Of a stretch of DNA of 64,000 bases, positions 41,424 through 43,179 are shown in pieces. The position numbers were made by a program, and so were the translations under genes. The notes under the pieces are model-generated. The model was given only the letters and a program-made list of their open reading frames with translations. It was not told the origin of the DNA and did no database searches. The DNA is taken from positions 15,872,001-15,936,000 of the forward strand of contig OX597835.1 in NCBI GenBank assembly GCA_951406725.2, read 5' to 3'. The number at the start of each line of letters is the position of its first letter. Position 1 is the stretch's first letter. Source of the stretch: Octopus vulgaris (taxonomy: Eukaryota).

Positions 41424-41679
41424 AAAATACCAAGTCGTTAACAAATTCGAGAAAATACACTAAGTAATAGTAAAAAGAAAAGAAAGAATTGACTTGTGGT
41501 ACTTGTTTCGGTTCTTCATGTTGTGAGTTCAAGTGCCGTCAGATTCTTTAGCTTTATCGACGTCAATAAAATAAACACCATTATCGTTTTATCTCTTTTT
41601 ATCCCATGCATTCCTTGCCTTTTCCCTTAATGAGAAAACTTAATTTAATAATATTTTGTATTCTCTACTTTATTTACAG

Positions 41680-41827
41680 TAACAGAGTTAAAAGAGTTTA
41701 TAGACAATGTTCAAAAGGAGTGTGTGGGGGCAACCATCTTTATCAACAGTATGTATGCTGTGCAGGTTTGTTCTGCTTGTGTATAGGATACAGCTGCAAT
41801 TGTGTTTACCGCCCATGGGCCTTGTAA
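41680..41827 (+). CDS. Cys-rich peptide gene 2, mature exon A (SNRVKR|VYRQCSKGVCGGNHLYQQYVCCAGLFCLCIGYSCNCVYRPWAL*)
   Basis: tatttacag acceptor in phase 2, RVKR site, framework C-x4-C-x10-CC-x4-C-x-C-x4-C-x-C; spliced precursor is 97 aa. Confidence 0.85.
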
Positions 41828-42070
41828 ATTTACCTTCGTATTGACGTTCTGCTCTTGTGAATTTTGTGGATAAATTTCATTCTTCTGAGAAAATCGATGA
41901 GATATAAACCCAAGAGAAAAACCTAAGACAAACAAAGCAAAGGAACCAGACAAACAACAAAAATACACTCAACTGCAACAAGAACGTCAACAAATGTTGT
42001 TGTTATTGATGTTGCAACATCTCCTCCTCCTGGTCCACATCGTCGCCGCTGTCCTCCCCACTCTACTTTT

Positions 42071-42124
<54 letters not shown>

Positions 42125-42950
42125 CTTTTCAACTTTGAAATCTAATCAATCGTCAGATCCTACAACAGTAGAAAACTATGAATAACCATCAAGAGACACA
42201 GTGAAATATAAAATATTAACGAGCAGAAGTTTGATTTTGTACTTTATCCTGGAAAGAAATTCACGTATGTTGCACCAAGAACTGAAATGGTAAAACAAGA
42301 GAAAATCTGCGAACCATAATCTACAACTATAAGTTTTCTAACAAACCGAAATTAATACGACGAACGTATTTAATATCTAATATATTTATGCTATTAATCC
42401 GTCAAATTTTAATGAAATTCCAATGAAATAAATTTATTAAAGCATCGCAAGTACTTGGTGTTTCGTTATTCACTGTGCTATTTGTTTTTAAGCTATTGAA
42501 ACGGTAAGAAAATCTCAGTGCTTCGTTCTTCGCTGTGATGTTGGCCTTTAAGCTATGGATTTGGATGTTAAGATTTGACATTGCAGCGTCACACTATATT
42601 ATTGTAAAAAATGTATTCCTTTAGGTCAAAATAGTGGCAATAATTTGAACACAGGCATTCAATAAGCGTGACATTGGAATTCTTGATATATATTTATATA
42701 CCAAGTCGTTAACAAATTCGAGAAAATACACTAAGTAATAGTAAAAAGAAAAGAAAGAATTGACTTGTGGTACTTGTTTTGGATCTGCATGTTGTGAGTT
42801 CAAGTGCCGTCAGATTCTTTAGCTTTATCGACGTCAATAAAATAAACACCATTATCGTTTTATCTCTTTTTATCCCATGCATTCCTTGCCTTTTCCCTTA
42901 ATGAGAAACCCTAATTTAATAATATTTTGTATTCTCTACAATATTTACAG

Positions 42951-43179
42951 TAACAGAGTTAAAAGATATCGTAAATGTTCAAAAGGATCTTGTGAGGGCC
43001 ACCCTCTTCTTCGACACTATCATTGCTGTGCAGGTTTCATATGTCTGTGTAGAAGATATCACTGCTATTGTAGTTCACAAAATATGATTCATGTGGATAA
43101 TATCATTATACGCCCAGTTGCAATCTCTTTTCTGATTTTTCTTGTATTGACGTTCTGCTCTTGTGAATTCTGTGGATAA
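42951..43179 (+). CDS. Cys-rich peptide gene 2, mature exon B (SNRVKR|YRKCSKGSCEGHPLLRHYHCCAGFICLCRRYHCYC plus hydrophobic tail)
   Basis: Same acceptor, phase and 8-Cys framework. The C-terminal extension is SSQNMIHVDNIIIRPVAISFLIFLVLTFCSCEFCG*; spliced precursor is 124 aa. Confidence 0.8.

Follow-up and report, generated by a model that had tools for sequence, protein, structure and literature searches.

Introduction

Spider toxins of the eight-cysteine (Cys) inhibitor-cystine-knot type (Toxin_9, purotoxin-1, agatoxins) and conotoxins have a prepro layout, hypervariable loops and the Cys spacing C-C-CC-CxC-CxC. The Ly6/lynx1 prototoxins also carry a small, disulfide-rich, toxin-like domain, which has a three-finger fold, lacks a propeptide, is largely conserved and is followed by a tail of about 30 residues of the glycosylphosphatidylinositol (GPI) type. 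Among molluscs, Mytilus CRP-I is a multigene family with a conserved signal and propeptide, a dibasic site and a knottin-like mature region that is hypervariable and positively selected; signal, propeptide and mature peptide lie on separate exons, the mature one last, and the family has many pseudogenes and an unknown function (PMC10138031, partial text). Exon 5 of the red and green opsins is a selected, highly diverged exon of tandem duplicates whose flanking introns have diverged little (PMC3924837, partial text). Here we describe an octopus locus that resembles each of these in part. It lies in a window of 64,000 nucleotides of Octopus vulgaris DNA (GenBank assembly GCA_951406725.2, contig OX597835.1, positions 15,872,001 to 15,936,000), and positions below are those of this window, on its forward (+) strand, unless a genome coordinate is given. 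The window contains three complete genes and the beginning of a fourth, each with separate exons for signal and propeptide and a final exon that encodes a basic cleavage site and eight Cys, with splice phases that agree throughout. The last exon of gene 2 occurs in three tandem versions, A, B and C, with a repeat unit of about 1.27 kb. The best explanation is that the three are tandem duplicates of a single gene's final exon and that this gene belongs to a large family in octopus; our main finding is that the loops of this family diversify under strong selection.

A large family of knottin-like genes

The signal exon had 36 matches in the genome (G000). Mature exons were sought in the 784 kb around these matches, and all family counts are lower bounds. 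The search yielded 56 mature exons (52 different cores), all in four C22 clusters except for one on C4, together with six further decayed or atypical sites. All 56 encode at least eight Cys, and their cores are cationic (median charge +3). Members m36-m38 (G000:C22:7680974-7693307) each encode ten Cys, three of them consecutive (CCC).

Apart from one weak match that looks unrelated (E value 8e-4), every protein found by profile searches was from octopus. The database relatives are models of 10 O. bimaculoides loci, all named 'uncharacterized', plus a pair of mis-joined models that carry the O. vulgaris label, one of them built from pieces of the window. The public model P0011 joins part of gene 1, the propeptide exon of gene 2, part of exon A and an out-of-frame exon B (28720-43100), and the family was missed in annotation partly because of this fused model. 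At least five members (m11, m40, m51, m52 and m54) have conserved O. bimaculoides counterparts, with identities at non-Cys core positions from 17/26 to 25/28. In the published literature outside subscription journals we found no paper describing this knottin-like family, and the partial texts of cephalopod venom and genome papers (10.64898/2026.04.09.716377, PMC7656900, PMC11288129, PMC12607849, PMC9068888, PMC13252362) do not describe it. The way this family evolves has precedents, but the family itself, like its predicted anchor, appears to be new.

Diversifying selection acts on the loops across the family

Codon site models were fitted with our own code to 37 of the 56 cores, using F3x4 codon frequencies, six beta classes and relative branch lengths taken from M0. 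These cores fall into five groups that can be aligned, and the set excludes identical duplicates and members that have no close relative. Model M8 was strongly preferred to M8a, with twice the log-likelihood difference (2dL) at 122.3 and an omega, the ratio of nonsynonymous to synonymous rates (dN/dS), of 6.2 on 69% of codons, nearly all non-Cys positions. Terms for multi-base mutation improved the fit, and with double and triple mutations allowed 2dL was still 78.6. Seventeen disjoint pairs, analysed without any tree, gave the same picture (M1a against M2a, 2dL 117, or 73.5 with multi-base mutations), while the maximum in eight null simulations with multi-base mutations was 12.2 under the standard models and 1.2 under the multi-hit models. 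Positive selection was significant in four of the five groups. The loops thus change several times faster than neutral DNA, and strong diversifying selection acts on them family-wide, a conclusion we hold with high confidence.

A sequence-only reading of the window had proposed such selection from exons A and B. Its counts were exact: over the 35 residues that align after the lysine-arginine (KR) site, all 8 Cys are kept, 15 of the 27 other residues differ and exactly four codons have silent changes only. The intron just upstream is indeed nearly unchanged, with 7 differences in the 252 bases before the acceptor, and the exon-intron contrast is far beyond chance (pN, the proportion of nonsynonymous differences, against the intron, Fisher p 6e-8). 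The mistake lay in taking four silent codons as few. The corresponding synonymous proportion, pS, is 0.25, against a pN of 0.22-0.25, and exceeds the intron value about ninefold (p 3e-4).

Two results count against selection on the loops. For A and B, dN/dS by the Nei-Gojobori method (NG86) is 0.86-0.97 and omega by maximum likelihood is 1.47, rising to a non-significant 2.2 on non-Cys codons (p 0.30); and the six-gene group adjoining the window has no detectable positive selection (p 0.35). With a ratio near 1 and no significance, we rejected the A/B dN/dS as proof of selection. The case for diversifying selection made by the sequence-only reading is thus strongly supported across the family, not by the pair it cited. 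That reading had also named two outcomes that would overturn it. A mature-exon dN/dS of 1 or less is partly what the A/B pair gives, whereas the family stands near 6. Flanks rejuvenated by gene conversion as the sole cause are borne out in part, in that the flanks look younger than the exons but do not account for the contrast by themselves. Neither alternative suffices alone, because an omega near 6 persists in topology-free pair tests and with multi-base mutations allowed.

Public runs from 2-3 studies yielded contigs that contain exons A and B/C at 0-7 differences, although one run may be the source sample; because both are present there, the A/B differences are not assembly errors. A single contig of one run, X8, places exon A after the sequence found in front of B in the window, which may point to another order of units in that sample.

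Flanking DNA is probably homogenised among copies

Silent sites in the cores carry more differences than the flanks predict. In 16 disjoint pairs, codons with an unchanged residue have 18 silent differences against 4.35 expected from the flanks and Cys codons have 10 against 2.34, together 28 against 6.7, or about four times the flank prediction. One comparison, m46 with m51, has 8 silent differences where 0.56 were expected, and for three groups the clean subsets give a core dS of 3-7 times the flank tree length. The peak of divergence is sharp: about 50 bases outside the core, divergence is already down to that of the flanks, and we looked for a gradual slope of divergence into the introns and found none. 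Two points temper this picture. The pairs were selected for similar upstream introns, which biases flank divergence low, and their distal flanks differ by 5-10%; and the silent excess is not universal, since core dS in the largest group (0.86-0.98) matches the tree length of the upstream flank (0.91).

Judged from these comparisons, the flanks have probably been homogenised by gene conversion and unequal crossing-over, which likely adds to the contrast between exon and flank. Focal hypermutation, reportedly proposed for conotoxins as well, is a candidate cause of the silent excess. The match of m51 to the O. bimaculoides model P0001, once considered as proof of conversion, was dropped; slow evolution of one duplicate explains it too, and because of this second explanation only silent-site counts were used for conversion.

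Genes 1 and 2 had been read as showing the same contrast as A and B. At their ends they are nearly identical: the signal exons differ at 4/64 bases (3 residues), and the distal 3' flank of gene 1 (29468..29939), probably homogenised with units A-C and 91-93% identical to other paralogues, differs from that of unit A (42140-42611) at 3/472 bases (99.4% identity). Near-identity is limited to these ends. Divergence starts at about 2% at the 5' end, rises to 10-15% in the middle introns and 26% immediately downstream of the exon, and drops to 0.6% in the distal flank, a significant heterogeneity (chi2 121, df 9). The middle of gene 1 is nearest to a decayed exon at G000:C22:3371896, 12.5 Mb away, and to four exons of that cluster, and its ends are nearest to gene 2. 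Because the similarity is patchy and the middle closest to a distant cluster, the contrast between genes 1 and 2 largely reflects mosaic ancestry.

A knottin-like framework

The framework C-C-CC-CxC-CxC is found in 46 of the 56 exons, including A, B, C and gene 3. The description of the Cys as fixed does not extend to gene 1, where only 7 Cys align with A and B; its framework, C-C-CxCC-C-CxC, is common to five other exons. In these six (28720-28855 in the window; m15-m18 and m20 at G000:C22 3.27-3.36 Mb), one Cys of the first CxC is lost and one is gained two residues before the CC, such that eight Cys remain. The shift probably re-wires the fourth disulfide.

Profile searches connect the family to known knottins. 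Pfam Toxin_9 matched 10 of the 46 aligned members at E<=0.1 (best 2.3e-5), and a profile search of the PDB reached purotoxin-1 at E 0.025. Single-sequence searches of Pfam (0/4), the PDB and homologues gave no matches; the ESM Atlas gave sub-0.9 leads only, several of them knottin toxin clusters; and a wide VIA fold search was dominated by the tail helix (best Z 2.9). A model of exon B has a beta-hairpin (residues 29-42) and a C-terminal helix. Its mean pLDDT (predicted local distance difference test) of only 66 tells against the fold, as does the lack of any fold match at E 0.001; the weak Foldseek rows (all E>2) were mostly cystine-knot peptides or knottins, which speaks for it. Taking profiles and model together, a knottin fold is likely.

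A hydrophobic tail that may be an anchor signal

In 46 of the 56 exons the reading frame runs on for 26-39 residues past the last Cys, usually as a polar segment containing small residues that leads into a hydrophobic end. A GPI-like rule of our own, written after the tails were seen and not a validated predictor, was passed by 43/56 exons, which as related members are not 43 independent trials, and by 6/9 O. bimaculoides models; random flank frames pass at 0.2-0.9%. The tail is present in both deep subfamilies and, among the O. bimaculoides loci returned, in the models of all 10. Tail length and the hydrophobic end are kept across subfamilies and species, and the tail contains no conserved dibasic site. 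None of 30 intact tails has an internal stop, where 2.5-3.6 stop gains were expected (P 0.003-0.06), a result that is significant at full tree length and not at half, from tails picked as intact.

Besides these limits of rule and sampling, three observations argue against a maintained anchor: omega in the tail is 1.24; conservation of tail hydrophobicity beyond neutral drift was tested for and not found (P 0.09-0.6); and 10 of the 56 exons lack a full tail, including A, which lost it through deletion and whose product is predicted to be soluble, and gene 1, which has an early stop. B and C retain a tail with an altered end. On balance we lean slightly towards cell-surface anchoring through a GPI-type tail as the predicted role.

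Organisation of the locus

Gene 2 begins with the coding part of a signal-peptide exon (38664..38727; 21 codons plus 1 base, phase 1 donor), which matches the N-termini of the O. bimaculoides models P0003/P0016, followed by a propeptide exon (39355..39436; phase 1 to phase 2) with AG/GTAAGA boundaries, whose peptide also occurs in P0011. The repeated unit starts with the intron end upstream of exon A (41427..41679), the segment aligned above with the unit of B. Exon A (41680..41827) encodes a KR site and an eight-Cys core and stops 7 residues past the last Cys; its 3' flank (41828..42700) has an AATAAA at 42427. Exon B (42951..43179) encodes a KR site, an eight-Cys core and a 35-residue tail with a hydrophobic stretch, its end altered by deletion. 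Exon C (44226..44454) encodes a protein identical to that of B, and the two units differ at 6/750 bases. Exon C is either a very recent duplicate of B or an assembly duplication. Contig depth of B/C was about 0.7-1.4 times that of A in three runs, contig depth not being copy number.

Duplication of the last exon recurs in the family. In four other genes a single detected signal exon is followed by two or three mature exons, at G000:C22:3384053-3391991 (-), 7680974-7697274 (-), 3343560-3350775 (+) and 3368683-3372858 (+). Alternative use of last exons is possible. Two LOC128250516 'isoforms' were considered as evidence of it and rejected; their signal peptides differ too. Four contig runs guessed to be RNA gave no spliced joint when aligned to gene 2 and covered mostly repeats, which is no evidence either way. 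The relics suggest that surplus mature exons often decay.

Gene 1 comprises the coding part of a signal-peptide exon (21712..21778), a propeptide exon (22944..22974) and a mature exon with the shifted framework (28720..28855) that stops 5 residues past the last Cys, a tail remnant persisting downstream as non-coding DNA. One of its introns contains a decayed relic of an older mature exon with tail (25590..25740; profile match with independent E value 2e-4), which resembles the 3' part of exon m54. Gene 3 belongs to a divergent subfamily and has the coding part of a signal-peptide exon (50258..50330), a propeptide exon (52953..53004) and a mature exon (56524..56770) with an eight-Cys core, longer loops and a 33-residue hydrophobic tail. 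The signal exon of the fourth gene lies at 62224..62290, and its mature exon, m46, lies outside the window.

Upstream of genes 1 and 2, a TATA-like motif, identical at 20565 and 37754, is followed by a likely non-coding first exon. A dispersed repeat of about 385 bases, which we take to be SINE-like (resembling short interspersed elements), occurs at 41040-41423, directly 5' of unit A, and also at 20731-21115, in the first intron of gene 1, 46593-46972 and 47331-47715. The window also has tandem arrays with units of about 76, 184 and 112 bases (7933-9248, 50800-52190 and 57205-58666, respectively), long TA microsatellites around 17-20 kb and 53.5-54.8 kb, and long imperfect inverted repeats or palindromes, probably transposon-derived, at 27735-28377, 45563-46462 and 56020-56230.

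Competing explanations

The explanation we favour, at about even chances, is that these peptides are knottins held at the cell surface and engaged in an arms race against a foreign target, and that variants lacking the tail are secreted. The precursor would enter the secretory pathway and then be cut at KR, the mature peptide would fold as an inhibitor cystine knot, and the tail would be exchanged for a lipid anchor; tail-less copies such as A and gene 1 would be secreted. The tethered knottins may bind a fast-changing foreign target, for which a microbe, a parasite or a prey protein are candidates. Exchange among neighbouring copies would reset introns, signal exons and 3' flanks, and conversion tracts across the core would be selected against, leaving the sharp divergence peak. 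A venom toxin family, possible though clearly the less probable account, would instead consist of posterior salivary gland knottins secreted against prey ion channels, with the tail as a disposable C-terminal propeptide or sorting signal. The prepro-KR-8-Cys layout, spider-toxin-like spacing, omega near 6, cationic cores, lineage-specific expansion and repeated tail loss would all fit, and a 'ctenitoxin-like venom homolog' with dN/dS 1.37, which may or may not be a member, is reported from O. bimaculoides (PMC13669787, partial text). Such a disposable tail is harder to square with the absence of a conserved dibasic site in it and with a length and hydrophobic end kept across subfamilies and species, and the available portions of octopus salivary-gland papers (PMC7656900, PMC12607849) name proteases, tachykinins and CAP proteins, not knottins.

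A more speculative extension, which we think rather improbable, is that more than 50 GPI-tethered, toxin-like knottins make up a surface-displayed combinatorial recognition or channel-modulating system, in which alternative last exons would give anchored (B/C) or secreted (A) forms and repeated anchor loss would be a route from tethered ancestors to soluble toxins. If the target were instead the octopus's own channels or receptors, the peptides would be endogenous tethered modulators, resembling lynx1 prototoxins but built on a knottin scaffold, and the later expansions would have been partly co-opted. The conserved counterparts of at least five members in O. bimaculoides would fit such a stable self target, and the tail length is like that of Ly6/lynx1 GPI signals. 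Most members, however, come from recent expansions in which nearly every loop codon has an omega well above 1, which is hard to reconcile with a conserved self target, and we consider this account quite unlikely. The contrast could also lack an adaptive signal altogether, arising from old exons in young converted flanks, or from focal hypermutation of the mature exon, with relaxed loops. The equality of pS and pN for A and B, the fourfold silent excess that includes Cys codons, the mosaic gene 1 and the better fit with multi-base mutation terms are what one would expect from it. Neither process lifts dN above dS, though, and omega stays near 6 with multi-base mutations and in tree-free pairs, with null simulations far below; this explanation is already largely refuted for the amino-acid excess and is very improbable.

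Comparison with known systems

The likeness to conotoxins drawn by the sequence-only reading holds for the pattern (conserved signal, dibasic site, hypervariable mature region, dN/dS above 1 family-wide) and breaks down at the hydrophobic tail that most members carry. No such C-terminal tail is known from secreted conotoxins. The tail and the shifted Cys framework of six members also set the family apart from the spider toxins, to which it is linked by weak profile and fold matches. Cys codons in the octopus family are not specially protected, having the same fourfold silent excess as other codons (10 against 2.34), unlike in conotoxins, where they are reportedly protected. The family also makes it possible to test directly a long-standing question about conotoxins: does raised silent divergence of mature exons come from hypermutation or from converted flanks? 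The evolutionary pattern is the same as in the hexatoxins, and a Cys codon bias is described in the same source (PMC4029134, partial text).

Octopus venom has been described mainly as enzymes and tachykinins, and more than 50 knottin-like peptides under strong selection are a candidate list for octopus defence, sensing or venom biology. With Ly6/lynx1 the family shares the layout of domain plus tail, and differs in being hypervariable on a knottin-like framework; if the tail is a GPI signal, it would be a natural knottin counterpart of lynx1-type tethered prototoxins. CRP-I, for which our sequence searches with the octopus family returned no proteins, has a six-Cys array, C(X3-6)C(X1-7)CC(X3-4)C(X3-5)C, against at least eight Cys here, and multiplies modules within one exon, whereas the octopus family duplicates the whole last exon with its flanks, mostly with a hydrophobic tail (PMC10138031, partial text). 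As to opsin exon 5, a divergence peak is expected where selection resists gene conversion (PMC3924837, partial text), and the octopus peak matches; unlike the opsin case, the octopus contrast recurs in dozens of paralogues, with ongoing positive selection on most loop codons.
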